From a virus (taxonomy: Duplodnaviria; Heunggongvirae; Uroviricota; Caudoviricetes), in the IMG/VR virus record IMGVR_UViG_2778261696_000009, positions 1 through 20,973 of that record: DNA of 20,973 bases, one strand, 5' to 3'. The position numbers were made by a program, and so were the translations under genes. The notes beneath the pieces were generated by a model, which was not told where the DNA came from, did not search any database, and saw only the letters and a program-made list of their open reading frames with translations. Positions 537 to 19,696 of this stretch are shown piece by piece. The number at the start of each line of letters is the position of its first letter. Position 1 is the stretch's first letter.

Positions 537-553
537 ATGGTGCGATAATAGGA
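537..553. repeat. Candidate attL core: left copy of a 17/18-nt direct repeat (ATGGTGC-GATAATAGGA) flanking the P4-like element
   Basis: ATGGTGCGATAATAGGA at 537-553 recurs as ATGGTGCCGATAATAGGA at 8653-8670, with a single 1-nt indel. One copy lies just outside the crr end and the other just outside the integrase end, as expected for att sites of an integrated element. Confidence 0.4.
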
Positions 554-612
554 ATGAATATTAAAAGTTAAGACATTGATTTATAATAGATTATTATATT
601 CAAAAAATATAA

Positions 613-633
613 CTATACACATATCTATACACA
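613..633. promoter_or_regulatory. Tandem CTATACACA(T) motifs, candidate integrase arm-type binding sites (left end)
   Basis: CTATACACAT at 613-622 and CTATACACA at 625-633. The same 10-mer occurs at 8532-8541 and inverted at 8488-8497, next to the integrase start. Four copies sit inside the element ends, between the candidate att core and crr or int. Confidence 0.35.
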
Positions 634-670
634 CTGCGCGCATCGCTTGTTTTTTACACAATTAAAAGTA

Positions 671-977
671 AGAAAAAAGTTTTTTTTCGAAAGAACTGTT
701 CACACTGTTCACCTTTCTTTTGTCTCCTTTTATTTCAGAGTGATAGGTGGTGAATAATGGGTGAAGGGTGAACATTCGATTCTTCACCTCCGGCATTCTG
801 CCGGTGTGACTCATACCGGTGATTAATCCCCCATACTGAAATCACACAGGGAGAAAAAAAAGTTTTTTTTGATTTGATTGTTCACACTGTTCACCTTTCG
901 TTTTTCTCTTTTAATTTCAGTGTGATAACGGGTGAATACACGGTGAAGGGTGAACAGTGGATTGTTCACCTTCGGGG
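671..977. repeat. crr-like cis replication region: two ~125-bp direct repeats (671-800 and 851-977), each with TGTTCACC-type iterons in both orientations
   Basis: Both units start with an A-run/T-run (AGAAAAAAGTTTTTTTT) and share near-identical sequence. Exact TGTTCACC octamers at 706-713, 888-895 and 963-970; reverse complement GGTGAACA at 767-774 and 949-956; near-iterons TGTTCACA at 697-704 and 879-886. Located directly downstream of the alpha gene, as recalled for P4 crr. Confidence 0.75.
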
Positions 978-986
978 AATTCAGGG

Positions 987-1013
987 ATAAAAAAAGACCG
1001 GCAGATGCCGGTC
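987..1013 (-). terminator. Rho-independent terminator downstream of alpha
   Basis: On the minus strand: GC-rich hairpin GACCGGC-(4-nt loop)-GCCGGTC at 996-1013, immediately followed by a run of 7 T (plus-strand A-run 989-995). It sits 17 nt after the alpha stop. Confidence 0.6.
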
Positions 1014-1029
1014 AGATGAGTCATGATGG

Positions 1030-3363
1030 TCAGGTTGTCGCAGGGTCGTCACATTTTGGCAGCCAGTCGCCGTAGCTTTCCTCTTTCAGCGTCAGGTTGG
1101 TCTGTATCCCCTGTTTGGTATGGCGCTTCTCGTAATTCAGTCCGTATTCCTTCAGCATCACCGGCAGCCCCAGCCCGAACATTTTCAGACTGAGTACATT
1201 CCGGTAGCCGTTTGCCTCCATGTAGGCCAGATAGGCGTGATAGAGGTATTTACGGTAATTGCGCGGGATGATACTGGCGTTCCCCATATACATGCCGCTG
1301 GTCTGCGGCAGGGTTTCCAGATAGCCGATAAAATCAAACGTCGGGTCGGCATCCCGTTTGATGTTCAGCGCCTCGTATGAGTTCTGCTGGGACTGAAGCA
1401 GTGACCGGGCGAGCATCGGGTCGCTGAACTTCTGCATCAGGTGACGCACGATGACCGCCAGCTCGCGGGTGATTTTGTCCTTAAGCTGCGGGTCGCGCTC
1501 CTGCGGGGCTATCTGTTCCGGGAAGTGAATAATCACCCGCCGGCGTGACACGCCGCCGCTGCGGTCGGTGAAGCGCATCGGGTTATTGTTCACGGCCAGA
1601 ATTACCGCCGGGATATGCGTGGAGTATGCATCCCGGTATTTCGGGTCAACGGACACCGCATCGCCGCCGGTGATGGCCTTGAGTCCGGCACCGTCGCCGC
1701 TCCATTTTTCCTGGTCCGGCAGGCGTATCAGTGAGAAGCCAGTTAACGCGGCACGTTCACGCGGGGATTCCAGCGTCTCGATGGTGGCCGACGTGGCGTT
1801 ATCCTCCCCGGCCAGCAGGGTGGCTATTTCGGCCATGATACTTTTGCCGCTGCCGCCGGGACCGGTCACCTCCAGAAAGAGCTGCCAGTCGTAGCGGTTT
1901 GCCAGCACCATAAACAGTGCGGCCAGAATCACGTCGCGTTTTTCCGCACGACCACCGGCGGCACGGTCAAGCCAGCGCCAGAACGCGGGGGCGTGGGTTT
2001 CCAGCGTTTCCCCTTCCACCGGCGGGGTGAAATCCACATCGCACAGGGTGCGCATCCAGTGTGACGGACTGTGCGGGTGGAACGTGCCGCTCTGCGTGTC
2101 GAGCACGCCGTTACGAAAGCCAATCAGGCGGCGGGAGGGGGCTTCCTGCTGCGGAATAATCAGCTTCAGGGTGTCCACCACGGAGGCCACCTTCCCGGAG
2201 GAGAACGGCGCGCGCAGACGCTGAAACAGCCCGGCCACATCCCGGGCAAAGTCCTGTGGCGGCAGCACCTTCCAGACACCATTTTCATAGCGGGACAGAA
2301 GCTGGCCGTTGGCATCGACCGCGAGCGCCTCGCCGTAATGCTCATAGATACGCATGGCCTTTTCGCTGGTACTCATGGCGGAAAACTCCGCTTCGCTCAT
2401 GGTGTCGAACGGGCTTTCAGCCGGTGGCCGGATGGCATCATAAATGGCCTTACGGGTGGCTTCCCCGCCGTACTGCGTGAAGGCATCATTCCAGTCACCG
2501 AAGACCGGCGGCAGGGCAACAACACCTTCACACGCATCTGCGGCTGCGGCGGCTTTTGTCTGGCCGTCACCGCTGAGGTCACGGTCAGCAGCAAGGACAA
2601 TCTGACAGGCCGGATGCTTCTGCCGGGCAAGGCTGGCCAGAGAAAGGAGGTTCACGGAAGAAAGCGCCACCATCACCGTTTCACCGGTCAGGTGATGCAC
2701 GGTAAGTGCGGTCGCGTATCCCTCCGCTATCCACAGACGTTTTCCGGCCTGATTCTGTCCTTCAAGGGTGTGACAGGTGCCCCTGACCTGTCCGCCTTTC
2801 AGGGTGCGCTTACGGCCGTCAGCGCTGATTAACTGAAGGTTAACCAGTTCGCCGCTGTCGTCATACAGTGGCACCACAAGGTCACCGGCGCACCAGCTCA
2901 CGCCACCGGCTCTGTGTGTGCCGGTCAGCATCCGGCATTCCCGGCCGGGAAAACCCTTGCGGGTCAGGTAGGCGTTACCGGTTCCGGGACGGGTTTTCGC
3001 CATCAGGGTTTGTGCCAGTGCGGCGGCGTTCTTCCGGGCAGCGTCTGTTTCAGCACCGGCGGCGGCCGTCACTGCCGGGTCAGCCGGGGGCAGACAGCCG
3101 GTCACGGCAGCCACCTTTGCGGCCGCGTCGGACGGGGAAACACCAAACACCTTTTCAACCAGTTTCAGGCCGTCACCGGCACCACACTGATTGCAGTACC
3201 AGGTGCCGCGCCCCTCCCTGTCATCAAAACGGAAGCGGTCACTCCCGCCACAGACCGGACAGGGCTGATGACGGTTTTTCAGCACCTGAATCCCCAGCGC
3301 CGGGAGAATACGCGGCCAGTGGCCGAGCGCATGGCTGACGGTGGCGGTTACGTTCATTTTCAT
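1030..3363 (-). CDS. alpha: P4-type alpha protein: bifunctional DNA primase / helicase / origin-binding replication protein
   Basis: 777-aa ORF, the length recalled for P4 alpha. N-terminal zinc-binding motif (CPVCGG...CNQCG), Walker A P-loop (GPGGSGKS) mid-protein, and a C-terminal domain upstream of the TGTTCACC iterons it would bind. AAGGAG RBS 8 nt upstream of the ATG. GC-rich. Confidence 0.9.
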   Translation of the reverse strand: MKMNVTATVSHALGHWPRILPALGIQVLKNRHQPCPVCGGSDRFRFDDREGRGTWYCNQCGAGDGLKLVEKVFGVSPSDAAAKVAAVTGCLPPADPAVTAAAGAETDAARKNAAALAQTLMAKTRPGTGNAYLTRKGFPGRECRMLTGTHRAGGVSWCAGDLVVPLYDDSGELVNLQLISADGRKRTLKGGQVRGTCHTLEGQNQAGKRLWIAEGYATALTVHHLTGETVMVALSSVNLLSLASLARQKHPACQIVLAADRDLSGDGQTKAAAAADACEGVVALPPVFGDWNDAFTQYGGEATRKAIYDAIRPPAESPFDTMSEAEFSAMSTSEKAMRIYEHYGEALAVDANGQLLSRYENGVWKVLPPQDFARDVAGLFQRLRAPFSSGKVASVVDTLKLIIPQQEAPSRRLIGFRNGVLDTQSGTFHPHSPSHWMRTLCDVDFTPPVEGETLETHAPAFWRWLDRAAGGRAEKRDVILAALFMVLANRYDWQLFLEVTGPGGSGKSIMAEIATLLAGEDNATSATIETLESPRERAALTGFSLIRLPDQEKWSGDGAGLKAITGGDAVSVDPKYRDAYSTHIPAVILAVNNNPMRFTDRSGGVSRRRVIIHFPEQIAPQERDPQLKDKITRELAVIVRHLMQKFSDPMLARSLLQSQQNSYEALNIKRDADPTFDFIGYLETLPQTSGMYMGNASIIPRNYRKYLYHAYLAYMEANGYRNVLSLKMFGLGLPVMLKEYGLNYEKRHTKQGIQTNLTLKEESYGDWLPKCDDPATT

Positions 3364-3377
3364 GGTGTTGTTCTCCT

Positions 3378-3626
3378 TCAGTGCAGTACCGGCGCTTTTA
3401 TGTGACGGGCACAGAGTTCATCCATCACAACCAGCCCGAGAAAGGACAGCGACGGCGCGGCCTTCAGGGGGCCGGATTCCATTAAATCTTCCAGCAGGGC
3501 ACAGGCTATCTGACGCCCTTTTTCCTCACCGTGCTGGCGCAGATAAAAGCCCTCCAGCTCAGCGGCGATGGCCGCCTCCAGTGACTCAAGGGTGAGATGC
3601 GGGTAGCGGTGCTGACGTTCGCACAC
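3378..3626 (-). CDS. Small protein in the epsilon position, directly upstream of and co-oriented with alpha; identity unverified
   Basis: Stop lies 14 nt upstream of the alpha ATG and overlaps the alpha RBS, suggesting co-transcription. The start is uncertain: GTG at 3626 has no obvious RBS and internal ATGs exist. Called by position only. Confidence 0.35.
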
Positions 3627-3716
3627 GGTCAGCCAGGCACAGGCGACAGCGCGACGGTAAAGGGCAGCGCGTAAGACGGGCGGTACCGCGATTCACTGAC
3701 GTCAGCCTCCGGCAGT

Positions 3717-3998
3717 ATGAAACGCCCGAAAAGAATGCTTGTTACCGGATATTGTTGTCGGAGATGTAAAGGCCTTGCACTGTCAAGAACATCGCGGCGT
3801 CTGTCTCAGGAAGTCACCGAGCGTTTTTATGTGTGCACGGATCCGGGCTGTGGTCTGGTGTTTAAAACGCTTCAGACCATCAACCGCTTCATTGTCCGCC
3901 CGGTCACGCCGGACGAACTGGCAGAAAGCCTGCATGAAAAACAGGAACTGCCGCCAGTACGCTTAAAAACACAATCATATTCGCTGCGTCTGGAATGA
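3717..3998 (+). CDS. delta: Ogr/Delta-family zinc-finger late-gene transcriptional activator (single-domain)
   Basis: Cys4 pattern CRRC...(x22)...CTDPGC, with SRTSR and RFIVRP segments that align by eye with phage P2 Ogr (C..C...ARTSR...KERY.QC....C...RYIVKP). 93 aa as called; an alternative start is the ATG at 3735. Confidence 0.8.
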   Translation: MKRPKRMLVTGYCCRRCKGLALSRTSRRLSQEVTERFYVCTDPGCGLVFKTLQTINRFIVRPVTPDELAESLHEKQELPPVRLKTQSYSLRLE

Positions 3999-4071
3999 GG
4001 GCTGCCGGTTAACACCGGCCGTCGCCGCACACCGTATTTTTATTCTTCAGCATGATGAGAAAGAGATAACG

Positions 4072-4644
4072 ATGGAAAGCACAGCCTTACAGCAGGCCTT
4101 TGACACCTGTCAGAATAACAAAGCAGCATGGCTGCAACGCAAAAATGAGCTGGCAGCGGCCGAACAGGAATATCTGCGGCTTCTGTCAGGAGAAGGCAGA
4201 AACGTCAGCCGCCTGGACGAATTACGCAATATTATCGAAGTCAGAAAATGGCAGGTGAATCAGGCCGCCGGTCGTTATATTCGTTCGCATGAAGCCGTTC
4301 AGCACATCAGCATCCGCGACCGGCTGAATGATTTTATGCAGCAGCACGGCACAGCACTGGCGGCGGCACTGGCACCGGAGCTGATGGGCTACAGTGAGCT
4401 GACGGCCATTGCCCGAAACTGTGCCATACAGCGTGCCACAGATGCCCTGCGTGAAGCCCTTCTGTCCTGGCTTGCGAAGGGGGAAAAAATTAATTATTCC
4501 GCACAGGATAGCGACATTTTAACGACCATCGGATTCAGGCCTGACGCGGCTTCGGTGGATGACAGCCGTGAAAAATTCACCCCTGCGCAGAACATGATTT
4601 TTTCGCGTAAAAGTGCGCAACTGGCATCACGTCAGTCTGTGTAA
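4072..4644 (+). CDS. psu: Psu (polarity suppression protein; capsid decoration / Rho antagonist) of P4-like satellites
   Basis: 190-aa ORF, the length recalled for P4 Psu. Directly downstream of the delta-like gene as in the P4 sid-delta-psu operon (no sid here). GC-rich, helical-looking sequence. Confidence 0.8.
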   Translation: MESTALQQAFDTCQNNKAAWLQRKNELAAAEQEYLRLLSGEGRNVSRLDELRNIIEVRKWQVNQAAGRYIRSHEAVQHISIRDRLNDFMQQHGTALAAALAPELMGYSELTAIARNCAIQRATDALREALLSWLAKGEKINYSAQDSDILTTIGFRPDAASVDDSREKFTPAQNMIFSRKSAQLASRQSV

Positions 4645-4680
4645 AATTCCCCGAAAATCCGCCCGTTTTTACTGAAAAAA

Positions 4681-4710
4681 GCCATGCATCGATAAGGTGC
4701 ATGGCTTTGC
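4681..4710 (+). terminator. Possible terminator hairpin after psu
   Basis: Inverted repeat GCCATGCA-(9-nt loop)-TGCATGGC at 4681-4705, followed by TTT. Modest intrinsic-terminator features. Confidence 0.35.
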
Positions 4711-4735
4711 ATGCGTTTCCCTGCCTCATTTTCTG

Positions 4736-4763
4736 CAGACCGCGCCATTCCCGGCGCGGTCTG
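4736..4763. other. Perfect 11-bp GC-rich inverted repeat (CAGACCGCGCC / GGCGCGGTCTG) with a 6-nt loop
   Basis: Seen directly at 4736-4746 and 4753-4763. Not followed by a T-run, so not a classical terminator. Lies in the psu-cos interval, so it could be a packaging- or protein-binding element. Confidence 0.4.
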
Positions 4764-4808
4764 AGCGTGTCAGTGCAACTGCATTAAAACCGCCCCGCAA
4801 AGCGGGCG

Positions 4809-4827
4809 GGCGTGGCGGGGGGAGCAT
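4809..4827. other. Degenerate cos-like site (P2/P4 cohesive-end-like)
   Basis: GGCGTGGCGGGGGGAGCAT matches the recalled P2/P4 cohesive end GGCGAGGCGGGGAAAGCAC at most positions. It sits where cos lies in P4 (after psu) and coincides with the sharp GC-rich to AT-rich transition. Confidence 0.4.
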
Positions 4828-4902
4828 TGCGCGCTAAGGCTGATATTATAATTTTCTTTAATTCTATTTGGTATTTTGGCTTTATTCGTCAGAAGGAACG
4901 TT

Positions 4903-4937
4903 TAGAAATAGACCACTACAATGGATTGTAGCGGTCT
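4903..4937 (-). terminator. Terminator-like hairpin downstream of the int-RT-partner gene string
   Basis: 12-bp stem AGACCACTACAA / TTGTAGCGGTCT (one mismatch) with loop TGGA at 4910-4937. On the minus strand it is followed by ATTTCTAAA and begins about 10 nt after the partner-gene stop. Confidence 0.45.
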
Positions 4938-4946
4938 GCATGATAT

Positions 4947-5687
4947 CTAGCGTTGCATTTCAGTTACTATGAAATTTTCTTCTGTAATAGAATTCATTAT
5001 CTCAAAGTACAATTCTTCAGGTTGAATAAACGCCAACTCTTTGCAAAGGTTGACAATGGTATCACTATAAGTGATACCCATCCGAGGATTGAAAAGCTCA
5101 AATCTCTTGATGTTTCTTTTGTTTTTTGAGTAAAAGTTTAAAGTGAAATATATTAGCACCTGTCTAAGATCGTAAACACTAAACTTCCTATCTCCTGATT
5201 TTATTTCCACAAGAACATTTGAATAATAAATATCGCCATATGAATTATTTATTACTCCGCATCCATCGAATTGTGGAGACACTTCAATTTGGTTTTCCAT
5301 TCCATATCGAGACAAAATGTTTCTTGCTATTTCCCTTATGGCATTGTACTCAACCATGCTTAAGGGTAGCTTGAAGTTAGAACCGTAAGCGAACCGCTGT
5401 AGATATTCTTTTGTTTTTTCAAAAACAACCTGAAAATCAGCATTATGGAAGATATCATGTGCTGAAAGAATATTTCTGTCTAACGAATCATTCTGTATTG
5501 CCCTATATAAATTAAATGCGCACTCATTAACAAAGACGTTATTTGACCTATTAGCGCAGTCATCTAGAGGAGGATAAACGTCCTCGATGAGACTGCCGTT
5601 AATGATGCGTATGAAATTATTAGCATTTGGAAGCAATTGATTCCAAAATGAAGTGAATTTTCGAGAAAACGTTAATTCAGATATCAT
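4947..5687 (-). CDS. Partner protein of the reverse transcriptase (246 aa, unknown family; possible nuclease-like effector)
   Basis: AT-rich ORF whose ATG overlaps the RT stop as ATGA (5684-5687). No family recognised by eye. Contains GDIYYSNVLVEIKSG, i.e. D-x9-E-x-K in a hydrophobic beta-like context, weakly reminiscent of a PD-(D/E)xK nuclease core. Confidence 0.7.
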   Translation of the reverse strand: MISELTFSRKFTSFWNQLLPNANNFIRIINGSLIEDVYPPLDDCANRSNNVFVNECAFNLYRAIQNDSLDRNILSAHDIFHNADFQVVFEKTKEYLQRFAYGSNFKLPLSMVEYNAIREIARNILSRYGMENQIEVSPQFDGCGVINNSYGDIYYSNVLVEIKSGDRKFSVYDLRQVLIYFTLNFYSKNKRNIKRFELFNPRMGITYSDTIVNLCKELAFIQPEELYFEIMNSITEENFIVTEMQR

Positions 5688-7312
5688 AGCGCATCCTCAA
5701 GATTTCTTGCGGTATGCCTTTTACTTGCCCAATCCCTGTAAATCACCTCTACAAAGTTGAATGTTTTCTTATTATGCTCTCTCCAGTGCCGTCCTTCATC
5801 ACCTAAGATGTAACTGGAAACGATCAATAGTCTTCTCTGCAACGGATGCATTGCAGAGAAATTTTTTTTGATATCAGAAAGCCATGCGTAAGAATTAATT
5901 TTTGCCATTGACTGTGTAACTATGTTCTTGACTAAGATGCTTTCTGGATTGTTATTGTATATTTCACTAAGGATTAGGGTGGATTTTTCTGAATTTTCTT
6001 TTGAGAGCATTCGGGCTACATAGGCTAAGTTGAGCTCAGTACTCAAAATATATGAATCTTGTTTAATTAGTGCAGTTATTTTATCAAGAATAATATCTTT
6101 GGTTTCTGTGCTTAATTTTTGCCAGTTGGAGTTAGCTACTTGAATTATAGTTGTAAATATTGGATATAACTCATGCAAGTTATTAAACATTACTTTGAAA
6201 GCACTACTTATTATTTCATCTGATGTTGCTGAGAATGCCTTTATCAAATGCTTGCTAAAAGATTGGTTAATTTTTGATTTTTGTAACTCACTACTCAGCA
6301 TAGCTAACAAGTCAAAATCTTTTAAAGATTCCTTTATCTCTTCATATTCCTCTATCGCATTTGCTGAGTAAGGATCGAATCTTATAGGAAGACTCATAAA
6401 TTTAGCCTTCATAGGAGATTCTTCATCTTCATCATTACCATGCAACTTAGCTTTAGTTACTGAAAGGAACTCTTCTTTAGTAACAATATTGGTTTTTTGT
6501 TTCTGTAAAGTTAGCCCTTCATTTTCCATCAGTTTTTTACTAAGCAAAGTTAAAATCTTATGAGCATCCTCTCTAGAGTTACAAAAAATAACAAAGTCGT
6601 CGACATAACGCTTATAGTTGATTCTATTCATAGACAATAATTTATCAATAGAATCTAGAGCTAGTTCTGCTAATATTCTAGAGGCAGGACATCCAACTGG
6701 TACTCCATATGATTTTGTTTCACTAAATGTCTGTAGTAATTTCTTGATTTTCCCAGAGTAATCTTTATTGGGGTCGACTCTATCTAACGCATTTTCTAAA
6801 CGGTGGTGATAAATACGCGGATAGAAATCTGCTATATCGCATGTAAGTACATACTTTATTTCATCGTTAGAACATTCAGAGATACTGTCTTCTTGATATT
6901 TTCTCCAAGAGATCTCTTTATCAAAAAGAGAACCATCAGCAAGGTTTGGTTTAAAGCGATATGAATAAACCTGCGTTTTAGTAGATCTATTCCTTTCAAT
7001 ATCATCAGCGATTTTTAAAACTAACCCAAGAAAAAAAGCATTCCAGAATGGATCAATTTGGGTCGCCCACCTGTAACCATAATAACCAATACTTGAAAAG
7101 CTATTAATTATGTTTGGTGGAATCTCGATCCTTTTATTTTCAAAGTCATTAAATGTTTGCATTAATGCAGTTTTTACTTTCTCCTTATCATCTTCAAATA
7201 ACCGACTTTCAAATGGGTAAGGGAAAATATCTGTATCGCCGTGCTTTATAATATTTTCCAATGCAAGCTCAAAGCAATTTTCTAGTTTACTACTATCAAA
7301 CTCGTTACTCAT
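5684..7312 (-). CDS. Reverse transcriptase (Abi/DRT-like defence-associated RT: N-terminal RT domain plus ~250-aa C-terminal helical domain)
   Basis: RT palm motifs in canonical order: LTCDIADFYPRI (motif A-like), GVPVGCPASRILAELAL (motif B-like), YKRYVDDFVIF (motif C, YxDD box). The C-terminal half has no RT motifs and contains GRHWREH (R-x4-H). The ATG overlaps the integrase stop (AATGAGTAA) with AAGGAG 7 nt upstream. AT-rich. Confidence 0.85.
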   Translation of the reverse strand: MSNEFDSSKLENCFELALENIIKHGDTDIFPYPFESRLFEDDKEKVKTALMQTFNDFENKRIEIPPNIINSFSSIGYYGYRWATQIDPFWNAFFLGLVLKIADDIERNRSTKTQVYSYRFKPNLADGSLFDKEISWRKYQEDSISECSNDEIKYVLTCDIADFYPRIYHHRLENALDRVDPNKDYSGKIKKLLQTFSETKSYGVPVGCPASRILAELALDSIDKLLSMNRINYKRYVDDFVIFCNSREDAHKILTLLSKKLMENEGLTLQKQKTNIVTKEEFLSVTKAKLHGNDEDEESPMKAKFMSLPIRFDPYSANAIEEYEEIKESLKDFDLLAMLSSELQKSKINQSFSKHLIKAFSATSDEIISSAFKVMFNNLHELYPIFTTIIQVANSNWQKLSTETKDIILDKITALIKQDSYILSTELNLAYVARMLSKENSEKSTLILSEIYNNNPESILVKNIVTQSMAKINSYAWLSDIKKNFSAMHPLQRRLLIVSSYILGDEGRHWREHNKKTFNFVEVIYRDWASKRHTARNLEDAL

Positions 7313-8489
7313 TCACATTCTCCTTAATAAAAATATAATCTGAATACCACTGCATCATATCACGGCGTTTATCAATATATTGAGCATGATTATACGTACC
7401 TCTAATATTATTCTTATCTATATGAGCAAGCTGTATTTCTATCCAAGCCGAATCATATCCTTTTTCGTGGAGGATAGTAGATAAGGAATGTCGAAATCCA
7501 TGACCAGTAAGTTTTCCACCATAACCAATACGCTTGATAACTTGGTTAATACTCGCCTCACTCATAGGCTTGTTCGGATCGTTCCGCCCCGGAAAAACAT
7601 AACTATACTTCCCTGTCATCATCTTGAGTTCATTTAGCAAATCTAACGCTTGAGTCGACAAAGGCACAAGGTGTGATCTGCGCATTTTCATCCTTTCAGC
7701 AGGAATTTCCCAAATAGCGTTATCTAAATCAAATTCTGACCATAATGCCGCACGTAATTCGATGGTTCTAACACCTGTAATCATGAGCAATTTCGTGGCA
7801 ATCAGGACAAGCCGACTTCCGGTATATCCGTTTAAGGCGCGAAGAAAATCAGGTATCTCATTAGCCTTTAAGAACGGGAAATGATTTGATTGGTGTACAT
7901 TGAGGGCGCTTGAAAGATCCGCAGCAGGGTTAAACTCAGCCCTTCCAGTAGCAATGGCATAGCGGAAAACTTCTGAGCATCGCTGCCGAACTTTGCGCAT
8001 TTTTTCTAATGCACCGCGCTTTTCGATTTTACGCAGCACATTAAGCAGTTCTAGCGGTTTAATCTCTCCCACTGGCCTTGTTCCCACATAAGGAAAAATG
8101 TCGTTCTTAAACGCTTCCATGATGTCTGATGCATATCCCGCCGACCATTTGGTAGACTTCTGTTGATGCCACTCTCTGGCTATCTTTTCGAAGGCGTTCT
8201 CTGACTCTGTTTGCAGAGCCAGCTTTTGCTCTTTTCGAACCTCACTAGGGTTCTTTCCTTCTGCCACAAGTTTTCGAGCTTCATCACGACGGGAACGAGC
8301 ATCAGCAAGAGTGATCGTTGGGTAAACACCAAGCGAGATCATTTTGGGTTTACCGGCATAGCGATAACGAAATCGCCAGCTTTTACTTCCATTTGGCTCT
8401 ACAAGTAAAGACAACCCTTGCCCATCCCCAAGTGTATAGGCTTTAGCTTCAGGTTTAGCACGGCGAATCTGCATATCATTTAGGGGCAT
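7305..8489 (-). CDS. int: P4-type tyrosine integrase (site-specific recombinase)
   Basis: 394 aa. N-terminal arm-binding-like region, then a tyrosine-recombinase catalytic region with R (LMITGVRTIELRA), HGFRHSLST (H-x-x-R) and a C-terminal RGTYNHAQY tyrosine region. Located at the element edge next to the candidate attR. Confidence 0.9.
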   Translation of the reverse strand: MPLNDMQIRRAKPEAKAYTLGDGQGLSLLVEPNGSKSWRFRYRYAGKPKMISLGVYPTITLADARSRRDEARKLVAEGKNPSEVRKEQKLALQTESENAFEKIAREWHQQKSTKWSAGYASDIMEAFKNDIFPYVGTRPVGEIKPLELLNVLRKIEKRGALEKMRKVRQRCSEVFRYAIATGRAEFNPAADLSSALNVHQSNHFPFLKANEIPDFLRALNGYTGSRLVLIATKLLMITGVRTIELRAALWSEFDLDNAIWEIPAERMKMRRSHLVPLSTQALDLLNELKMMTGKYSYVFPGRNDPNKPMSEASINQVIKRIGYGGKLTGHGFRHSLSTILHEKGYDSAWIEIQLAHIDKNNIRGTYNHAQYIDKRRDMMQWYSDYIFIKENVNE

Positions 8490-8541
8490 GTGTATAGAAT
8501 TCCAAAATCGAACAGGAACATATACATAATCCTATACACAT
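8488..8541. promoter_or_regulatory. Int-proximal CTATACACAT motifs (one inverted copy overlapping the int start, one direct copy), candidate arm-type sites and int promoter region
   Basis: ATGTGTATAG at 8488-8497 is the reverse complement of CTATACACAT; a direct copy is at 8532-8541 and a related ACATATACATA at 8519-8529. Same motif as at 613-633. Confidence 0.35.
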
Positions 8542-8652
8542 TTAGTACTGGATTCTACTGGAAAGTTATGGACTAATACGAACAGTAAAAACAAAAAATC
8601 TTTTATAAAACAGTGCGGTTATGGATAAATACGGATGTTTGAAGAAGTGGAG

Positions 8653-8670
8653 ATGGTGCCGATAATAGGA
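8653..8670. repeat. Candidate attR core: right copy of the 17/18-nt direct repeat
   Basis: ATGGTGCCGATAATAGGA at 8653-8670 versus ATGGTGCGATAATAGGA at 537-553. It lies ~165 bp beyond the int start. Confidence 0.4.
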
Positions 8671-8727
8671 GTAAAACACTCGATTAATCTCGTGTTAATG
8701 CCATCACCTACGACCATTACTAATTGA

Positions 8728-10092
8728 TTGAATCTTATAGAAAAATCATCATTTTCTATGCGTCACAATCAATTTTCACATTACAAACGCTCCGACACTT
8801 TAGCCGGAGATTTTATGAGATACAAGCCTAACCAATACTTAATCTGTGATTCTTACGGTAACTACTATTTAAGGATCACGCTGCCTGTGTATATGCAGCC
8901 CTTTTTTGAAGGAAAAAGGACGTTTGTCAGAAGTCTACACACAAGTAATCTTCGTGTTGCACGTAGAAAGCGTGATCAGATTGCAGATGAATACCATTGC
9001 TTACGGGAGAGTGTTGCCCCTGTAAACAGCACAATAGAAAACACGCTGGAACTGTTACGCAGTAAGGCTAAATACGCCAAAACAGCTACCAGAGTGCAAG
9101 ATACAGCGTCTTCGTGTCCGTCATTGCTTAAAATTCTTGAAATCTACCTGACAATTAACAGCACGAAGAAGAAGCCAGCCACTTTAGCTAAGGCAAGAAA
9201 AGCGGTAGAGATGTTTCTCTCCTACCGTAAAAAGCCTGATATTGCATTGCAAGATGTAAGCCGCACCACTGTTACAGGCTGGATTGAACACATGCAAAAA
9301 ACTCTTTCACAACAATCAATTGCAAATTATATCAGTCCAATGGCCCAGCTATGGGAATTAGCTTCATCACGTTACCACGATGCGCCAGAAAGGGCGCTCT
9401 CCCCCTGGCGAGGGCATAGGCTTGATGTGGCACAAAGTAGAGAGAGCTACGAGGCATTTTCTAACAAAGAGCTATTGCAGGTGTTGCAAGTATTTTCCGG
9501 TAATTCAGCAGAAAACAAAGAAATGACGGCTTTGTGTCTTATCGGTTTATATACAGGTATGCGGATCAATGAGATAGCAAGTCTCACAATAGACGATGTG
9601 AAAGAGATCGAAGGTGTGCTGTGTTTTGAAATCACACAGGGAAAGACGAAAGCTGCGGCACGTGTTGTGCCTGTGCATAACCTTATCACTCCGTTGGTGT
9701 TGTCGCTGCGTGAAAAGCCTCACAATGGCTTTTTGTTCTATCACGCCAGCATTACAGAACGTGCTGACGGTAAACGCTCTACGTGGCATACACAACGATT
9801 TACAAGAGCTAAACGAAAGGCTTTAGGGGAAAAGGGAACAGAAAGGAAAGTGTTTCATTCTCTGAGACACGGAGTAGCACAGCTTCTTGATCGAAATCAA
9901 ATTCCAGAAGACAGGATCGCCCTTCTCCTGGGCCATACACGCGGCAATACAGAAACATTCCGCACATATAGCAAAAATGCAGCTTCTCCAATAGAGCTTA
10001 AAAAATATATTGAGCTTTTACGCTACCCTGAAATAGAGAAAGGCTTATCAATCAATAAAAAATCAAATTTAAGGCGTAAAACAACGCTATAG
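8728..10092 (+). CDS. Second tyrosine recombinase / phage-type integrase (likely true start at ATG 8815)
   Basis: C-terminal catalytic signatures: YTGMRINEIASL (R), HSLRHGVAQLL (H-x-x-R), LLGHTRG and FRTYSK (Tyr). The in-frame ATG at 8815 has a GGAG RBS 5 nt upstream. Divergent from the P4-type int. Confidence 0.8.
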   Translation: MNLIEKSSFSMRHNQFSHYKRSDTLAGDFMRYKPNQYLICDSYGNYYLRITLPVYMQPFFEGKRTFVRSLHTSNLRVARRKRDQIADEYHCLRESVAPVNSTIENTLELLRSKAKYAKTATRVQDTASSCPSLLKILEIYLTINSTKKKPATLAKARKAVEMFLSYRKKPDIALQDVSRTTVTGWIEHMQKTLSQQSIANYISPMAQLWELASSRYHDAPERALSPWRGHRLDVAQSRESYEAFSNKELLQVLQVFSGNSAENKEMTALCLIGLYTGMRINEIASLTIDDVKEIEGVLCFEITQGKTKAAARVVPVHNLITPLVLSLREKPHNGFLFYHASITERADGKRSTWHTQRFTRAKRKALGEKGTERKVFHSLRHGVAQLLDRNQIPEDRIALLLGHTRGNTETFRTYSKNAASPIELKKYIELLRYPEIEKGLSINKKSNLRRKTTL

Positions 10093-10172: not shown

Positions 10173-10850
10173 CTATTGTTTAAATACTGGCGTTACAACG
10201 TCTTGCCCTGGGCTTTTTTGATTTTTCTGTTCTGTTGTATTTACCTGCATTTTAACCTGGCCTCCTACAGATTTATTTGGTGCTGTTTTTACCGCAATTG
10301 CGCTTGTAGTTGCTTTAGAGACAAGACGGATTTGCTCAAAATCAAGAGTAAACAATAGGCTTTCGCTTGCTTCTTCTTCGTAAGACATGCCAACTAACAC
10401 AACGTTGTCATAATTTTTTAACTCAGTGACAAGTAGGAAAGGTTGGCGACTGTCCATCAACTGATTTAGGTATTCAAGCATAAGCATACGTCGATTGCCG
10501 TTAATTCCAGCATTCTTAATCATATCAGGATTGAGCTTCAATACGGTTTCAGAGATACGCCCTTGTAATGTGAACTTGTTATTCCGTATTTGAACATGAT
10601 CACTAACTTCTGATCCTGATTCGACGGCATAGCTTGTAACGTCCGCATTTCTGCTAACTTTCGTCGATTCCACGCTATCAAATGATAATGCCTGGTAGTC
10701 ATTGTAAGCAGCATTTGCACCACTGCCGAGATTAGAGGTAATGATCGCAAAGCCGTTACCCCCTTTGGTTGTTCTACCGTTGCTATCGTTGCTTGTGCTG
10801 TTGATTTTCGCCTCAGTCGGGCGACCAATGGTTAACGGACCCATTGCCAT
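10173..10850 (-). CDS. Hypothetical protein (225 aa), last gene of the structural-looking operon
   Basis: ORF with AAGGA RBS upstream of the ATG at 10850; Ser/Thr/Asn/Gly-rich N-terminus. Follows the 613-aa gene on the same strand. Function not recognisable by eye. Confidence 0.5.
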   Translation of the reverse strand: MAMGPLTIGRPTEAKINSTSNDSNGRTTKGGNGFAIITSNLGSGANAAYNDYQALSFDSVESTKVSRNADVTSYAVESGSEVSDHVQIRNNKFTLQGRISETVLKLNPDMIKNAGINGNRRMLMLEYLNQLMDSRQPFLLVTELKNYDNVVLVGMSYEEEASESLLFTLDFEQIRLVSKATTSAIAVKTAPNKSVGGQVKMQVNTTEQKNQKSPGQDVVTPVFKQ

Positions 10851-10897
10851 AATTTGTAATCCTTATTTAAGGGGGCTAAACAGCCCCACAGTGATGA

Positions 10898-12739
10898 TTA
10901 ATAGGTTGACCCGCCTGACATAACACCCAGCGTTAATAGCTTGCTAAACTCAGCGGAGGATGCCTTTGATTTGAAGTCGATAAATTCGCTCAATCGTCCG
11001 GTGTCTGATTCGATAGTTAGCGGCACTTCTGCATTTACTTGTAATTCTGGATTGAAGTTAATAACAGGTGCAAAGGTGTAAGAAGGAGCCTTGAAAGCTT
11101 GTTGTGCTGCACTCTGTTTCAGATTTGCAATGTTTTGTCCTTCGAGACTGTATTGATTTACAGCCTGCGCCCCACCTACCGTTTCTTCTGGCATAAACCA
11201 GCTTTTAATAGTGTTAACCAGGGAATTGCTGTTATCTGGCTTAGTTGTTCCGGTGCCAGCGCCTTTATATTGATCAGGAGTGAGATTAGAAAGATTCTGC
11301 TTCATTCCTTCGTTAGATAGTGGCGGTGCATCCCCTAAATTCTTCTGAATAGCTTCCGTCTTCTCGTCGTTTTTCATCAGCCAGTTGATTGTTTTCATTA
11401 CGGCGTTAACCAATCCGCCGATAGCCTCGCCTAATTTGGTAAACATTGGCAGCATTGCAACCATGCTCTTTTTAAACTCTTCAATCACTTTCGGATCAAG
11501 AGATTTCATAAAGCCATCAACAAAGGCGATCCCTTGTGAGTCAGAAAGCCCACTAAGTGCATTATTCAGTTCACGGAATTTAATAACGCTTTCCTGTTGT
11601 GCCTGTGTTACCCAGCGCCCTGATTCTCGTTGTTCTCGTGCTGATTGTTCCACTTCTTTAGCGGAGCGTGTCCAGTATTTAGAGGTGAGCATCAAATCAT
11701 CAGCCAGATCTTCCAGACGACTACCGATTTGTGCATCTGAATAGCCTTTCTTCACCATTCCCTGAACTGCTTTACTAACCAGACCAGCCGGATTATCAGC
11801 AAAGTCTTTTAGATCCTTTTTAGTTAAGAATCCTTCATTCATTAAAGTATTGATGCCGCTATCGCCGCCCTTCCATTCACCTTTGCCTGTTTTTTTATCG
11901 ACTACATATTCAGCCTCATCATAGCTTTTGGTTGCACGCTCACGCACATCTTTCATCTGATCGAGATACTTACGTTTACCTTGATCCCCCATCATTGAAT
12001 CAACGCCGTTTTTGTAGGCCCATTGCTCAATATTGTTCATCTGGTTAACGTCTACACCGCCCAGCTTCGCACGGCTATACAATTCACCCAGCGTTTCAGC
12101 ATTCGCAAAGCTGTTAGTAACAAATTCAGAGGCTTTGCTCATAGCCATATACGTAGCGCCAGCGCCTAAGCCACCCAGCATAACAGCCGCAGCACCGCCG
12201 CCAATACTCCCGCTACCCTTAACAGGTGCATAGGCTTTAGCGTGAGCGTTACGATTGCCATTAATCTTACGTTGTTGCTGTTGTAGGCGTTTCATTTGGC
12301 TATTCATACGTGCCAGACTAATAGCTCCTCTTTCATATTGGAGGGCAATTTCTCTAGCCTGTGCAATAGCTTTATATTGTTCCGCTACAGAAAGGCGGTG
12401 CAATGCACTAATGCTTGATCCAACGTCTAACAGTTTTAAGTCTGCCTTCTCTTTGCGTGCTGCCAGGGCTTTTTGTTCTCTTGCAACTACACGTTGAGCG
12501 GCTAATTGTGCTTTAGCATTGGCTTTATCTGCCTGTGCTTGCTTTTTAGCAATATCGTCTACGTCTTTTTTTGCTTTAGAAGTTGATTGTTTATGTGTCT
12601 TAACACGCAATTCTATATCTTTCACCGCCGCCATTTGTTTACGAAGTTTTTCTACTTCTGCTTTTGCTTTCTCTAATGATGGTCGATCAACCTGGAAGGT
12701 GACAACGTTTGATAAGCGGCTGACGTTAAGTTCTAACAT
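10898..12739 (-). CDS. Large coiled-coil / glycine-rich protein (613 aa), tape-measure-like or scaffold-like
   Basis: N-terminal ~150 aa strongly charged Lys/Ala/Gln-rich heptad-like sequence, then a Gly-rich hydrophobic segment (GSGSIGGGAAAVMLGGLGAGATYMAMS). This architecture is typical of phage tape-measure or internal virion proteins; the assignment is tentative. Confidence 0.6.
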   Translation of the reverse strand: MLELNVSRLSNVVTFQVDRPSLEKAKAEVEKLRKQMAAVKDIELRVKTHKQSTSKAKKDVDDIAKKQAQADKANAKAQLAAQRVVAREQKALAARKEKADLKLLDVGSSISALHRLSVAEQYKAIAQAREIALQYERGAISLARMNSQMKRLQQQQRKINGNRNAHAKAYAPVKGSGSIGGGAAAVMLGGLGAGATYMAMSKASEFVTNSFANAETLGELYSRAKLGGVDVNQMNNIEQWAYKNGVDSMMGDQGKRKYLDQMKDVRERATKSYDEAEYVVDKKTGKGEWKGGDSGINTLMNEGFLTKKDLKDFADNPAGLVSKAVQGMVKKGYSDAQIGSRLEDLADDLMLTSKYWTRSAKEVEQSAREQRESGRWVTQAQQESVIKFRELNNALSGLSDSQGIAFVDGFMKSLDPKVIEEFKKSMVAMLPMFTKLGEAIGGLVNAVMKTINWLMKNDEKTEAIQKNLGDAPPLSNEGMKQNLSNLTPDQYKGAGTGTTKPDNSNSLVNTIKSWFMPEETVGGAQAVNQYSLEGQNIANLKQSAAQQAFKAPSYTFAPVINFNPELQVNAEVPLTIESDTGRLSEFIDFKSKASSAEFSKLLTLGVMSGGSTY

Positions 12740-12773
12740 GCTAATTGTTTCCCTGTATTATGATTGTTGTTTA

Positions 12774-12971
12774 TTATTGTTTTTTAGAGCAATAGTATTG
12801 AATTGCTTCGAAAGTGCTGCACCCAGTCTGAAAGACACGCTGGCGCACATTATTTGCATCAATTTCTAAAAGGCGGCAAAGCGCCGATGTGTTTATAACT
12901 GATTCCTCGCTAATAGCTGCCAGTTCTTTTACAGCCTTAAGAATAAAGGATTGTGAGTTTTCTGTATTCAT
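12774..12971 (-). CDS. Small hypothetical protein (65 aa)
   Basis: ORF between the capsid-like and 613-aa genes on the same strand; weak RBS; no recognisable motif. Confidence 0.35.
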   Translation of the reverse strand: MNTENSQSFILKAVKELAAISEESVINTSALCRLLEIDANNVRQRVFQTGCSTFEAIQYYCSKKQ

Positions 12972-13122
12972 TGGTTTTCTCTCACATATATATTTTTATT
13001 TGGGTTTGTAGACAGTAGAAAAACAAAAAGGGCAAAGAGATTCGTTACTGTATTTGCGCCTACAGGTTAGTTAATCCCTTTACCCTTATTGCCCCGATGG
13101 GGAATCGTCTATTAACGCTTTA

Positions 13123-14154
13123 TTACGCAGCAGATCCGAAGATGATAGCTTGCGGAATGTTGTTTACTGGCAGATAAGATGTCTCAGTAACCACAGATGG
13201 GAATTGGAATTCATCCTTGATTAGATATTGGTGATGCAACACGGCATCTTGACCTAACTCAGCATGACGCACACCAACGCCGCTATGAAGCTGGTAACAC
13301 TGTGCCGCTTTATCCATTACCGGAACAATTGCGAAACCGTTCTCTCCGATGTGAGCAACAATCTCAGGAAACATTGACACATCAATAACAGTGATCCCAC
13401 CAATCTGGAAAGAGTCATAGGCTGGGTTAGAATCAACCATACGGGTAAACAGGGCCGTAGCACTCGCATCGCCTGCATATTTCACCATGTCACTGATCAG
13501 CGGGTTAGATGACAAACCATCAGCAGCAGTGCCAGCAGCAAAGATAATTACACCAGTTCGCTTTGCAGCAAGACCAGACCCCAGCTTTTCACTCTGTAAG
13601 CGCACCGCTTTACGAATAGCAAGGAACGGGTTAACAGTAGTCGATGCAAAGTCGATAGCGGGTACCGTGGTTTTAGCCTGACCGTCGAGGAAGTCGAGAT
13701 CACCTTGTCCGGCATATTCAGATTCAACTTTCAGGCCCAGCAGCGCGGTAATCAGATCCACTTCAACACGGTTTGCGTGTGAACGGTAATGAGCCTCAGA
13801 GAAATCATTAACCGCTACCAGCATAGCATCAGAACGGTTTGGATATTGGCGGCTGTATTGTTCCAGGTCACGAGAAGTAACAGCGTTAATACTGCCGACG
13901 TGTTTCATCTGGAAAAGTTTGTTTGACCATTCCTGACGTTTAGAGGCGTTCCAGTCGCTTTGAGCGTAAGGCGAGGTTTCCCCAGCTACCTGCACAAACT
14001 GATCAATCAGGTCGGTAAGAAGAATGCTGTTTTCTGTATGATATTGCACATCGAACAGATCGAGATTAGTAATCAGGGTATTAAGTGCATTCTCATAAGC
14101 AAATGGAGTTACTACCGCAGTATTAACGCCAAAATATGTTGATAAATCATTCAT
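13123..14154 (-). CDS. Putative major capsid-like protein (343 aa); identity tentative
   Basis: Strong RBS (AAGGAAA, 8-nt spacer). Size and position immediately after a ~127-aa decoration-like gene mirror the lambda-type D-E (decoration, major capsid) arrangement. No direct sequence match could be verified by eye. Confidence 0.55.
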   Translation of the reverse strand: MNDLSTYFGVNTAVVTPFAYENALNTLITNLDLFDVQYHTENSILLTDLIDQFVQVAGETSPYAQSDWNASKRQEWSNKLFQMKHVGSINAVTSRDLEQYSRQYPNRSDAMLVAVNDFSEAHYRSHANRVEVDLITALLGLKVESEYAGQGDLDFLDGQAKTTVPAIDFASTTVNPFLAIRKAVRLQSEKLGSGLAAKRTGVIIFAAGTAADGLSSNPLISDMVKYAGDASATALFTRMVDSNPAYDSFQIGGITVIDVSMFPEIVAHIGENGFAIVPVMDKAAQCYQLHSGVGVRHAELGQDAVLHHQYLIKDEFQFPSVVTETSYLPVNNIPQAIIFGSAA

Positions 14155-14168
14155 TATTATTTTCCTTG

Positions 14169-14552
14169 TTAAGTCGTAGGGATCGCAAGTTCTTCATAAC
14201 CAGCAATTACAAAGCCGAGAGATTGCAGTTTTGCAATAACACTTGCCTTTTCCATGCTGTTAAATTCAATCCCATCTTCAGCCAGAATAACGAAAGTAGG
14301 ATGTGCAACCACTACGCTTTCCTGTCCTTCATAAGCCGGTTCAACTACTACGTGAGCAATATCAGATGCGGTTGTTGCTTTGGTGCCATCGGCTTTCAGC
14401 AAAGCCCCGACAATAAGATCGTCAGTGAGAGGTGAAGCCAGTTTGACGAGGCGATCTTGCAGCACTGGATCAGCAGCGTAAGCTACTACCTTACAGCGTG
14501 AACGGGAGTTATCCGCATTCACTGCTTTTAATTTTCCATATGGGTTAGCCAT
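14169..14552 (-). CDS. Putative head-decoration-like / small structural protein (127 aa); identity tentative
   Basis: RBS AAAGGAAAA embedded in the end of the upstream small gene (tight coupling). Ala/Val/Gly-rich beta-looking sequence; size and position are consistent with a capsid decoration protein. Confidence 0.5.
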   Translation of the reverse strand: MANPYGKLKAVNADNSRSRCKVVAYAADPVLQDRLVKLASPLTDDLIVGALLKADGTKATTASDIAHVVVEPAYEGQESVVVAHPTFVILAEDGIEFNSMEKASVIAKLQSLGFVIAGYEELAIPTT

Positions 14553-14754: not shown

Positions 14755-15738
14755 AAATAATGTTCCTGTTAGTGCCAGACAAATAAAAAGCCCCAATGCC
14801 GTAAGAGGTTAATTCTGACCAGCAAAGGGGCTTTAACGTGCGGGCAATTACATAATTGATAAGTTAAACTATAAGAGGATTAAACATATCAGCAAATACA
14901 CTTTTTAAATATACTTGATGATATGCTTAAAGGGTGAATAGATACTCCTGAAAACATGCTCTTAGGAAAACATGCGGAATCAATCAGGAATATCTATTCG
15001 GGGCGCGGTGGCCAACCGCTATCTTTCATGGTGTGGATGCACCAGTCAGATTTTAAGGAATCACTATTCCAATCTACTCACAGATTAAATTTTTAATAAT
15101 GATTAACTACACCAACAGTAATCTACCGTTTCAGAAAATCGTTTTTACAACCAAAGCTTATAGATCCGCATTCTATAAAACCCGTTTTGCTATCAATATT
15201 TCCAAAGTTTATTGCACCATTCTTAGCTAAACTCTCTCTGCTTGCGGCTAACGCTATGCAGATGATTGTTTTTGACAACAACTTAATAGATTATTCTGTT
15301 ACTAACTTCTGTCATTAAATAATAGTTTAATGATGTTAGTAAATAGTTATAAAATATAACTATCAGTGTAAGGCTCTTTAATGTTTTCTGACAAAATAAG
15401 GAGCTTTAGGATAAGCATAGATGAAAAATAATAGCGGGAAGGGCAAGGAGATAACACCTACCCGCTTTTATCAAAATTAAGCACAATGCCTAACAACATT
15501 CATCAACACAACGTAGAAACAATCAACAATCAAAGAGGGAGTTATGATTATTCTAAAACTTCTTGAGAGATGGAAGGTAATATTTGTTAGAGGTTAATGC
15601 CACTCAACCTTTGAGGCTATCACCTTCCATATGCAGGGATTTATGACAGTAGAAGGATTAACACCAACTAAAATCTTTTTATCTACCCCTAAAATTATTA
15701 TATAACAAAATCATTATAAATGCAAATAATTTTCATTA

Positions 15739-17727: not shown

Positions 17728-17851
17728 TTAGTTCCTCCTTTGTAAGGACTGTAATTAGTAATTCATTAACAAGTTTTGGAATTGATTTCCCTTCTGCCTT
17801 TGCACGATTTAACAACGCGTTATAAGTTGCAGAATCAAAATTAATATTCAT
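17663..17851 (-). CDS. Ribbon-helix-helix (CopG/Arc/ParG-like) DNA-binding protein
   Basis: N-terminal SATYNALLNRAKAEGKSIPKLVNELL fits a beta-strand plus two helices RHH signature. GGAGAAGGAG RBS upstream. The 3' 65 nt overlap the start of the downstream gene. Confidence 0.55.
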   Translation of the reverse strand: MNINFDSATYNALLNRAKAEGKSIPKLVNELLITVLTKEELNDQKYQNNCRSESQMSKSERW

Positions 17852-17874
17852 TTGGTTTTCTCCTTCTCCTGTTA

Positions 17875-19689: not shown

Positions 19690-19696
19690 AAGGAAA

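Follow-up and report, generated by a model that had tools for sequence, protein, structure and literature searches.

A P4 derivative and a second integrative element in tandem at the thrW tRNA gene of Escherichia coli

Two integrases and the att copies around them

The stretch of DNA analysed here (the window) comprises 20,973 nucleotides (nt), positions 1 to 20,973 of the virus record IMGVR_UViG_2778261696_000009, and carries two tyrosine integrase genes lying back to back, one belonging to a P4-type satellite and the other to a second integrative element (element 2). It is 100% identical to the chromosome of Escherichia coli strain EC12, in whose record it is flanked by paoABCD-yagP on one side and thrW-proA-proB on the other. 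The site is that of the E. coli tRNA-Thr gene thrW, an integration site held in K-12 by the cryptic prophage CP4-6. The order is yagP, a degenerate att copy (538-553), an 8.1-kb P4 derivative, a 19-nt att copy, the 12.9-kb element 2, which runs from 8673 to thrW with its integrase at the tRNA-distal end, and intact thrW. Intact thrW lies about 600 bp past the right end of the window (minus strand, window-equivalent positions 21580-21655). No tRNA was detected when the window was scanned with ARAGORN; an Rfam scan of the window at gathering thresholds gave no match. The features at the ends of the two elements are as follows.

1-411: yagP, LysR-type pseudogene
538-553, minus strand: distal att copy, TGGTGC-GATAATAGGA, which lacks one C of the thrW 3′ end
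554-672: P′ arm of the P4 derivative, with two CTATACAC motifs at 613-620 and 625-632
7305-8489, minus strand: P4-type tyrosine integrase of the satellite, 394 amino acids (aa), thrW-specific and distinct from the leuX integrase of P4 itself
8490-8653: P arm of the P4 derivative, with CTATACAC at 8490 and 8532 and TTATGGAYWAATACGRA at 8566 and 8619
8654-8672, minus strand: central att core, a hybrid of the tRNA-proximal junction of the P4 derivative (left) and the tRNA-distal junction of element 2 (right)
8673-8814: integrase-side arm of element 2, with a palindrome and a displaced tRNA-like 10-mer
8815-10092 (open reading frame, ORF, from 8728), plus strand: tyrosine integrase of element 2 with a DUF6538-type N-terminus, at the element end distal to the tRNA

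The satellite integrase contains Arm-DNA-bind_3 (PF13356, 9e-28), Phage_int_M (PF22022, 2e-35) and Phage_integrase (PF00589, 1.2e-25) domains. This architecture, integration at a tRNA 3′ end and the location of the gene beside the tRNA-side att place it in the P4-type subfamily. In the integrase of element 2, DUF6538 (4e-9), Phage_int_SAM_5 and Phage_integrase (PF00589, 1.5e-17) domains were found. The catalytic R..HxxR..H..Y residues are retained in both enzymes, as R241/H330/R333/H356/Y366 in the P4-type integrase and R250/H348/R351/H374/Y385 in that of element 2, and comparison of the two proteins revealed no similarity outside the HxxR box. The 5′ ends of the two genes point at each other. 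Thus, the preliminary description of two unrelated tyrosine integrases back to back is borne out. The shared interval of about 240 bp which it placed between them is real, but its length needs correction. The gap is 238 bp if the integrase of element 2 starts at TTG 8728, as in the program-made ORF, and 325 bp from ATG 8815, the start backed by the RefSeq annotation and by alignment with a Klebsiella homologue. In a promoter and terminator scan of the interval, sites were no more numerous than in shuffled sequence.

The interval was also said to contain a candidate attR and arm-type motifs, and an att copy and candidate motifs were found there. The sequence TGGTGCCGATAATAGGAGT at 8654-8672 reproduces without mismatch, on the minus strand, the terminal 19 nt of thrW, CCA included; it occurs once in the window, with a chance expectation of 0. 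The candidate arm motif CTATACAC is present in five copies (613, 625, 8432, 8490 and 8532) against 0.5 expected, a number reached in none of 100 shuffles, and all five are located at the ends of the P4 derivative. The copy at 8490 is inverted and touches the integrase start codon, and that at 8432 is inside the integrase gene. The TTATGGAYWAATACGRA copies at 8566 and 8619 form a direct repeat. Both motifs are conserved in the arm of Sp2, a P4-like satellite of O157 Sakai.

At the yagP side, the boundary reads gattttaa-TGGTGC-GATAATAGGA-atgaat (538-553). This distal copy is the outer boundary of the P4 derivative as well as of the entire array, and adjoins the yagP-side chromosome. A search with the 19-mer allowing up to 3 mismatches matched the central copy only; the outer copy, which has a 1-nt deletion, was recognised by reading and by regular expression. 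The same C is missing from the yagP-side att of strain EC21, which carries the P4 derivative alone. Since it is missing also at the yagP side of Sp2 (27516-27532 of the Sakai stretch compared), despite a different adjoining arm sequence, the single-C form probably derives from the satellite attP. This form suggests that the strands were exchanged inside ATGGTGC, the 7 nt of identity that lie at the very 3′ terminus of thrW.

The arm of element 2 is organised differently. A 22-nt palindrome, AACACTCGATTAAT/ATTAATCTCGTGTT, lies beside the core at 8675-8696, and the tRNA-like 10-mer ACCTACGACC, which in thrW is only 3 nt past the core, is found at about 8706-8715. A segment of about 33 nt apparently replaces the 'CGA' of a longer tRNA-like attP. 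This insert with its palindrome (8673-8715) could be a protein-binding site or could have arisen by chance. No convincing arm-type repeats for the element-2 integrase were seen, only the core-adjacent palindrome.

Occupancy of thrW and the history of the array

To follow the two elements across strains, 800-nt synthetic junctions were built in silico and compared by megablast (coverage of at least 80%) with 5,426 complete E. coli genomes. The predicted solo and empty junctions were found at 100% identity in other complete genomes. The empty site, in which the yagP flank adjoins intact thrW, was present in 948 genomes. The P4 derivative alone (P4-type int, P arm, core, thrW, proA) was found in 120, many at 100% identity, with int 164 bp from intact thrW; element 2 alone (yagP flank, core, second integrase) in 277; and both integrases contiguous in 29. 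The suggestion that these are two separate elements is therefore supported, and so is their common target, both being located at the thrW 3′ end with att copies at each boundary. The four states cover about one quarter of the genomes; in the others the site has different occupants (CP4-6, or the types of Sp1 and Sp2) or the yagP-side flank is different. thrW is a very busy integration hotspot.

Strains representing the solo states were inspected. The layout in EC21 is yagP, the P4 derivative with the same anti-phage DRT8 cargo, and thrW; that in strain 503025 is yagP, element 2 with the same proteins, and thrW. Between EC12 and EC21, the left flank (4,284 nt) and the right flank (11,898 nt) are identical and the P4 derivative is colinear over 8116/8116 nt with one single-nucleotide polymorphism; the only other difference is element 2 together with one 19-nt core. 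The presence or absence of element 2 is thus precise in a near-identical background. When EC12 and 503025 were compared, element 2 (12,909 nt, a 12,939-column alignment) differed by 6 mismatches and 2 gap openings, whereas the chromosomal flanks differed by 0.35-0.55%. Near-identical copies in diverged chromosomes argue for horizontal transfer; element 2 appears to move between lineages and to have been mobile recently.

The central junction consists of the left half of the EC21 tRNA junction and the right half of the yagP-side junction of strain 503025. A direct copy of the tRNA 3′ end is found at every boundary, three copies in all, with the intact tRNA at one end; each element occurs solo at the same attB elsewhere. 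As each is colinear with its solo copy and the central junction is a hybrid of the solo junctions, the two form a tandem array of independent elements, neither nested nor a single island. We consider, with a probability of about 90%, that the interval between the integrases is the internal junction of this array, and that the array was produced by two successive site-specific integrations at the same attB, the 3′ end of thrW.

The preliminary description had left open whether the elements were tandem or nested. An insertion of one element disrupting the other could be thought of because divergent integrases superficially resemble an insertion into an integrase-proximal region, but each element is present in full length and aligns colinearly with its solo version, and the boundary is exactly the tRNA-derived core. 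Nesting is thus extremely improbable, and only the tandem arrangement stands.

A single composite island with two integrases, moving as a unit via the outermost att sites, would fit with the contiguity of the elements in 29 genomes and with the direct repeats that bracket the whole 21 kb. Against this, the P4 derivative stands alone in 120 genomes and element 2 in 277, with junctions exactly as predicted; their gene contents are unrelated; the arm sequences presumably needed by each integrase are located at the internal junction and not at the outer ends; and the outer left core is degenerate. These results make a composite island very unlikely. The cross-strain comparison of presence and absence, which had been proposed for this locus, likewise shows that the blocks do not always occur together as one inseparable unit.

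The tandem array could have arisen as follows. The P4-type satellite would have integrated first, via its own integrase, at thrW; its int would then lie beside a regenerated thrW, and a copy of the tRNA 3′ end would be left at the yagP side. In a second step, the 12.9-kb element 2 would have entered the regenerated thrW via its own DUF6538-type integrase, the 19-nt tRNA end bordering the satellite becoming the distal att of the newcomer. The result would be integrases back to back over a hybrid junction made up of the satellite P arm, the 19-nt core and the element-2 arm. As each element retains its own att pair, each could in principle be excised separately, for which the exact difference between EC12 and EC21 gives indirect support. 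We infer the order of these events, which integrase carried out each of them and how active the elements are today.

That the satellite was resident first is indicated by strains which have the same flanks and the P4 derivative either without element 2 (EC21) or with other variants of it (EN-1077 and 4600). In EN-1077, the left flank is identical to that of EC12 (5,972/5,972 nt) and the P4 derivative is 99.97-100% identical, while its element-2 variant is only 94-99% identical. In strain 4600, the annotated flank and P4-derivative proteins are as in EC12, and several element-2 proteins differ. Most likely, element 2 arrived second, at a regenerated thrW, with the satellite already in place, and the simplest reading of the variants would be that it entered the regenerated thrW more than once. 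The earlier proposal that the satellite had inserted at the edge of the second element probably has the order reversed.

The reverse order would have element 2 resident and the satellite integrating later next to yagP, where the distal 19-nt tRNA fragment of element 2 would serve as a secondary attB. The outcome would be indistinguishable, and the distal fragment retains the whole 16/17-nt segment common to the satellite att. Integration of Sp10 into the attR of the resident prophage Rac in K-12 has been shown experimentally (PMC2669165), and element 2 alone is commoner than the satellite alone (277 genomes and 120). However, EC21 combines the EC12 flanks with the P4 derivative in the absence of element 2, and other element-2 variants lie beside the same P4 derivative in EN-1077 and 4600. 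A satellite without ori, vis, epsilon, delta and sid would also make an improbable newcomer, unless it suffered the deletion afterwards. On balance, the reverse order appears unlikely.

Several points weigh against two successive integrations in the order proposed. The final structure is the same for either order of insertion, and EC21 could in principle descend from a strain like EC12 that lost element 2 by precise excision. The activity of both integrases is judged from sequence features. The satellite vis gene, which codes for the excisionase, is deleted, and no excisionase was recognised in element 2 by ORF profile scans. The genome counts ignore the clonality of the collection.

The preliminary description further considered that the two elements might be mobilised together. 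This finds no support, as the elements assort independently, the arms that each integrase presumably needs meet at the internal junction, the outermost core is degenerate, and the P4 derivative has lost its excisionase, origin and helper-manipulation genes. Vis is reportedly required for excision of the P4 prophage. With ori, vis, cI, epsilon, sid and the 5′ part of delta lost, the P4 derivative is unlikely to move by itself at all.

Gene content of the P4 derivative and of element 2

The P4 derivative spans 538-8672. Two blocks of it match P4: 673-3685 corresponds to P4 4291-7291 at 98% identity (crr, alpha, ORF106), and 3684-4808 to P4 10500-11624 at 99% (3′ part of delta, psu, right cos end). 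The deletion joint at about 3684/3685, where the two alignment blocks overlap by 2 nt, fuses P4 7291 to P4 10500. Lost with these 3.2 kb (P4 7292-10499) are ORF151, epsilon, cI, vis, ori, sid and the 5′ part of delta. The P4 derivatives of EC21, EN-1077 and strain 4600 are annotated with this truncated layout too. The features between the arms are the following.

673-975: P4 crr, two direct repeats of about 120 nt, 98% identical to P4 from position 4291
1030-3363, minus strand: P4 alpha primase-helicase, 777 aa, intact (Zn_Ribbon_Prim, Toprim_3, D5_N, Pox_D5)
3378-3692, minus strand: P4 ORF106 homologue (DUF5375), its 5′ end at the deletion joint
3681-3998, plus strand: truncated delta, 3′ part only, annotated as a pseudogene
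4072-4644, plus strand: psu (polarity suppression/capsid decoration), intact, Psu domain 1.3e-88
4809-4827: cos-like site GGCGTGGCGGGGGGAGCAT, 15 of 19 nt as in the P4 cohesive end (4 differ)
4947-7312, minus strand: DRT8 cargo in the psu-int hotspot
4947-5687, minus strand: PD-(D/E)xK partner of Drt8, RTasPDDEXK 5.5e-69
5684-7312, minus strand: Drt8 reverse transcriptase, Drt8 4.9e-166 (profile positions 4-492 of 493), RVT_1

The match to P4 runs precisely to the end of the P4 genome, position 11624; the cos-like site follows, and the changes at the ends of GGCGTGGCGGGGGGAGCAT resemble the phage 186 type. A Drt8-class reverse transcriptase with an adjacent PD-(D/E)xK partner gene, the two overlapping by 4 nt, identifies the cargo as DRT8. 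The start of the reverse transcriptase gene overlaps the integrase stop by 8 nt, and the cargo may therefore be co-transcribed with int. In EN-1077, an IS3 insertion sequence (IS) is found within the reverse transcriptase gene.

P4-like satellites have been defined with P4finder by at least five of the seven components int, psu, alpha, delta, sid, alpA/vis and epsilon (PMC8628076). In the window, int, psu and alpha are intact, and delta, sid, alpA/vis and epsilon are truncated or missing. With three intact core components where at least five of seven are required, the left block is a decayed P4 derivative, an incomplete satellite. Today it seems to be chiefly a carrier of the DRT8 anti-phage system. 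A P4 satellite can, on this evidence, shed its parasitic machinery and still persist as a fixed DRT8 carrier, displaced from the tRNA by newer arrivals.

The remaining features of element 2 are listed below.

10173-14552, minus strand: structural-like module
10173-10850, minus strand: Dit/baseplate-like protein, 225 aa
10898-12739, minus strand: tape-measure-like protein, 613 aa, with a tape-measure PHROG match
12774-12971, minus strand: 65-aa ORF
13123-14154, minus strand: major-capsid-like protein, 343 aa, divergent Phage_cap_E-like
14169-14552, minus strand: decoration-like protein, 127 aa
14557-20973: remainder of element 2 in the window, with small ORFs, the rep-like ORF, repeats and the invertase
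17059-17727, minus strand: helix-turn-helix (HTH)/replication-initiator-like ORF, 222 aa, weak match
19038-19139: 22-nt iteron-like repeats
19697-20254, plus strand: serine recombinase/invertase

Pfam and/or PHROGs scans covered most ORFs of at least 60 aa, all RefSeq coding sequences of this length among them, and detected no portal, terminase, tail tube/sheath or lysis genes. At 12.9 kb and with this content, element 2 is not a functional tailed prophage. Two stretches, 14800-15735 and 18060-19690, are poor in ORFs. The latter contains the 22-nt iteron-like direct repeats and an 11-nt tandem repeat (19008-19035), and could be an origin or operator region.

The element-2 family was found in 759 of the 5,426 genomes, with a size of about 11-14 kb in the records sampled, and a member at 99.6% identity is carried by the O104:H4 outbreak strain. 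A relative of about 12.8 kb is present in Klebsiella pneumoniae between tRNA-Gly(ccc) and a distal integrase, with the gene order of element 2. The decoration-like protein of this relative is 42% identical to that of element 2, the capsid-like protein 47%, the integrase 35%, and the tape-measure-like protein 28-29% over its full length. A 275-aa ORF occupies the rep-like position without detectable similarity to the rep-like gene of element 2, and the Dit-like gene is absent. Synteny kept at such low protein identity argues for a maintained design and not for random decay of a prophage.

Decay of individual copies is nevertheless observed. In EN-1077 and strain 4600, element 2 has its tape-measure-like and Dit-like genes disrupted by IS3 and IS5; some copies are thus degenerating where they sit. 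It could be argued from this that both elements are inert fossils, element 2 being a deleted prophage remnant with a relic integrase and its distribution being due to homologous recombination of large segments. The gene scans, with no portal, terminase, tube/sheath or lysis genes, are in line with such a view, and Sp1 and Sp2 of O157 Sakai at the same locus yielded no circular forms (PMC2669165). The limits of presence and absence coincide, however, precisely with the 19-nt core between strains that share 16 kb of identical background, near-identical copies reside in diverged chromosomes, the syntenic Klebsiella relative of about 12.8 kb at tRNA-Gly (28-47% protein identity) retains the design, and the catalytic residues are kept in both integrases. 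Inert remnants are thus an improbable explanation, and two successive integrations by mobile elements account better for the pattern.

The structural-like genes link element 2 to one phage group, the Stephanstirmvirinae (phi92/phAPEC8-like), virulent myophages with genomes of about 150 kb. The best phage homologues of the 613-aa protein, and most of its 134 phage matches, are tape-measure proteins of this group at about 30% identity. The Dit-like protein is 49-53% identical to the product of the gene directly 3′ of the tape-measure gene in these phages. For the capsid-like protein, tblastn against 50,697 phage records gave no match; its link to phage capsids runs only through family members bearing PF03864 and a profile comparison, in which the family aligned, as a distant relative, with the Stephanstirmvirinae Phage_cap_E with an hhalign probability of 80% (E = 1.4e-5, 235 colinear columns). 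The capsid-like, decoration-like, tape-measure-like and Dit-like genes are homologous to those of phi92/phAPEC8-like myophages and in the same order (phage inny was compared). In addition, about 550 bp of the window (17315-17865) have a nucleotide identity of 93-98% with Phapecoctavirus and Justusliebigvirus genomes of the Stephanstirmvirinae. The segment covers the 5′ part of the rep-initiator-like ORF and a 62-aa ORF, and in the phages lies inside genes for hypothetical proteins. Identity at this level to virulent phages would imply recent exchange of DNA between them and the chromosomal island.

The family thus has a common design, comprising tRNA integration, a length of 12-13 kb, a tRNA-distal integrase, a rep-like gene, iteron-like repeats and a pared-down virion module. 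A scan of IMG/VR with the capsid-like protein returned nine loci on contigs of 19.8-58 kb, eight from isolates and one from a metagenome judging by their identifiers; none of the nine shows any sign of a packaged genome of about 13 kb. Literature searches on thrW tandems, DUF6538 and Stephanstirmvirinae satellites brought up no account of element 2, which is weak evidence given the thin coverage of subscription journals. Tentatively, and with well below even odds, element 2 might represent an undescribed family of phage satellites in Enterobacteriaceae that may parasitise or interfere with Stephanstirmvirinae; the window would then combine, at one tRNA gene, satellites with helpers of two different lineages, a remnant of a P2-dependent P4 and a satellite linked to virulent phages. 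The larger potential value of the locus lies here. If true, this would be a new satellite family of E. coli and Klebsiella, targeting phi92/phAPEC8-like virulent phages, which feature in phage-therapy collections, and present in about one in seven complete E. coli genomes, the O104:H4 outbreak strain included.

Comparison with known systems

Capsid-forming phage-inducible chromosomal islands (PICIs) are defined by int, alpA, a primase/rep and a small capsid and packaging module (HK97-type capsid, protease, portal, connectors, TerS). Element 2 falls short of this definition, having only an integrase, a weak rep/HTH candidate, a divergent Phage_cap_E-like capsid protein and a decoration-like protein. 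Like these islands and PLE-type satellites, it is small and integrative and combines an integrase and a replication-initiator-like gene with several genes for virion proteins; at 12-13 kb it is likewise too small for an autonomous tailed phage, and its virion-like genes resemble those of one phage group. It differs from them in that portal, protease, TerS, connectors, AlpA and primase were not found in its ORF scans and that tape-measure-like and Dit/baseplate-like genes are present instead.

CP4-6 of K-12 occupies the same attB and, like element 2, has its integrase at the tRNA-distal end beside a tRNA fragment adjoining yagP. Its repeated tRNA fragment is about 49 nt, as against 19 nt in the window. 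That the second integrase might be IntF of K-12, or element 2 a form of CP4-6, was considered and excluded: the integrases are 24% identical, in the catalytic domain only, and no proteins are shared, no homologues of element-2 proteins having been found in the IntF-proximal 12.5 kb of CP4-6.

With P4 (NC_001609), the left block has 98-99% identity over crr, alpha, ORF106, the 3′ part of delta and psu, up to the cos end, and the prophage order att-alpha...psu-cos-hotspot-int-att is the same. In P4, annotated arm repeats flank the core and recur at the beginning of int; the layout of CTATACAC in the window is similar. The target is different (leuX for P4, thrW in the window), and so are the arm motifs, which in P4 are 12-mers containing GGGGGCA where the window has CTATACAC. 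The hotspot cargo is gop/beta/cII in P4 and DRT8 in the window. Defence cargo in the psu-int hotspot is a feature which the window has in common with the P4-like family, and tandem elements beside P4-like satellites were noted in the survey of that family (PMC8628076).

The closest parallel is Sp1/Sp2 of O157:H7 Sakai, at the same site and in the same order of thrW, a non-P4 element, a P4-like satellite and yagP. The integrase of Sp2, like that of the window satellite, faces an internal copy of the thrW 3′ end; integrase and P arm are 86% identical at the nucleotide level to those of the window, and the similarity does not extend past the 19-nt core. As a P4-like element, Sp2 is more complete than the window satellite (sid, psu, a delta-like activator, repressor and alpha are annotated), and its cargo is different. 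Sp1, unlike element 2, is a lambda-like remnant with its integrase beside thrW and a longer tRNA repeat. It is because the integrase of element 2 lies at the tRNA-distal end, unlike that of Sp1, that the two integrases of the window are back to back. Integrases in this arrangement at a tRNA site are thus the signature of sequential integration into a regenerated attB and call for no special composite element. As Sp1/Sp2 are of the same design at thrW, the mechanism is an ordinary and known one, and the particular combination of elements in the window is a new instance of it. The locus provides an unusually clean natural example, with near-isogenic strains differing by one element and counts for all four occupancy states.

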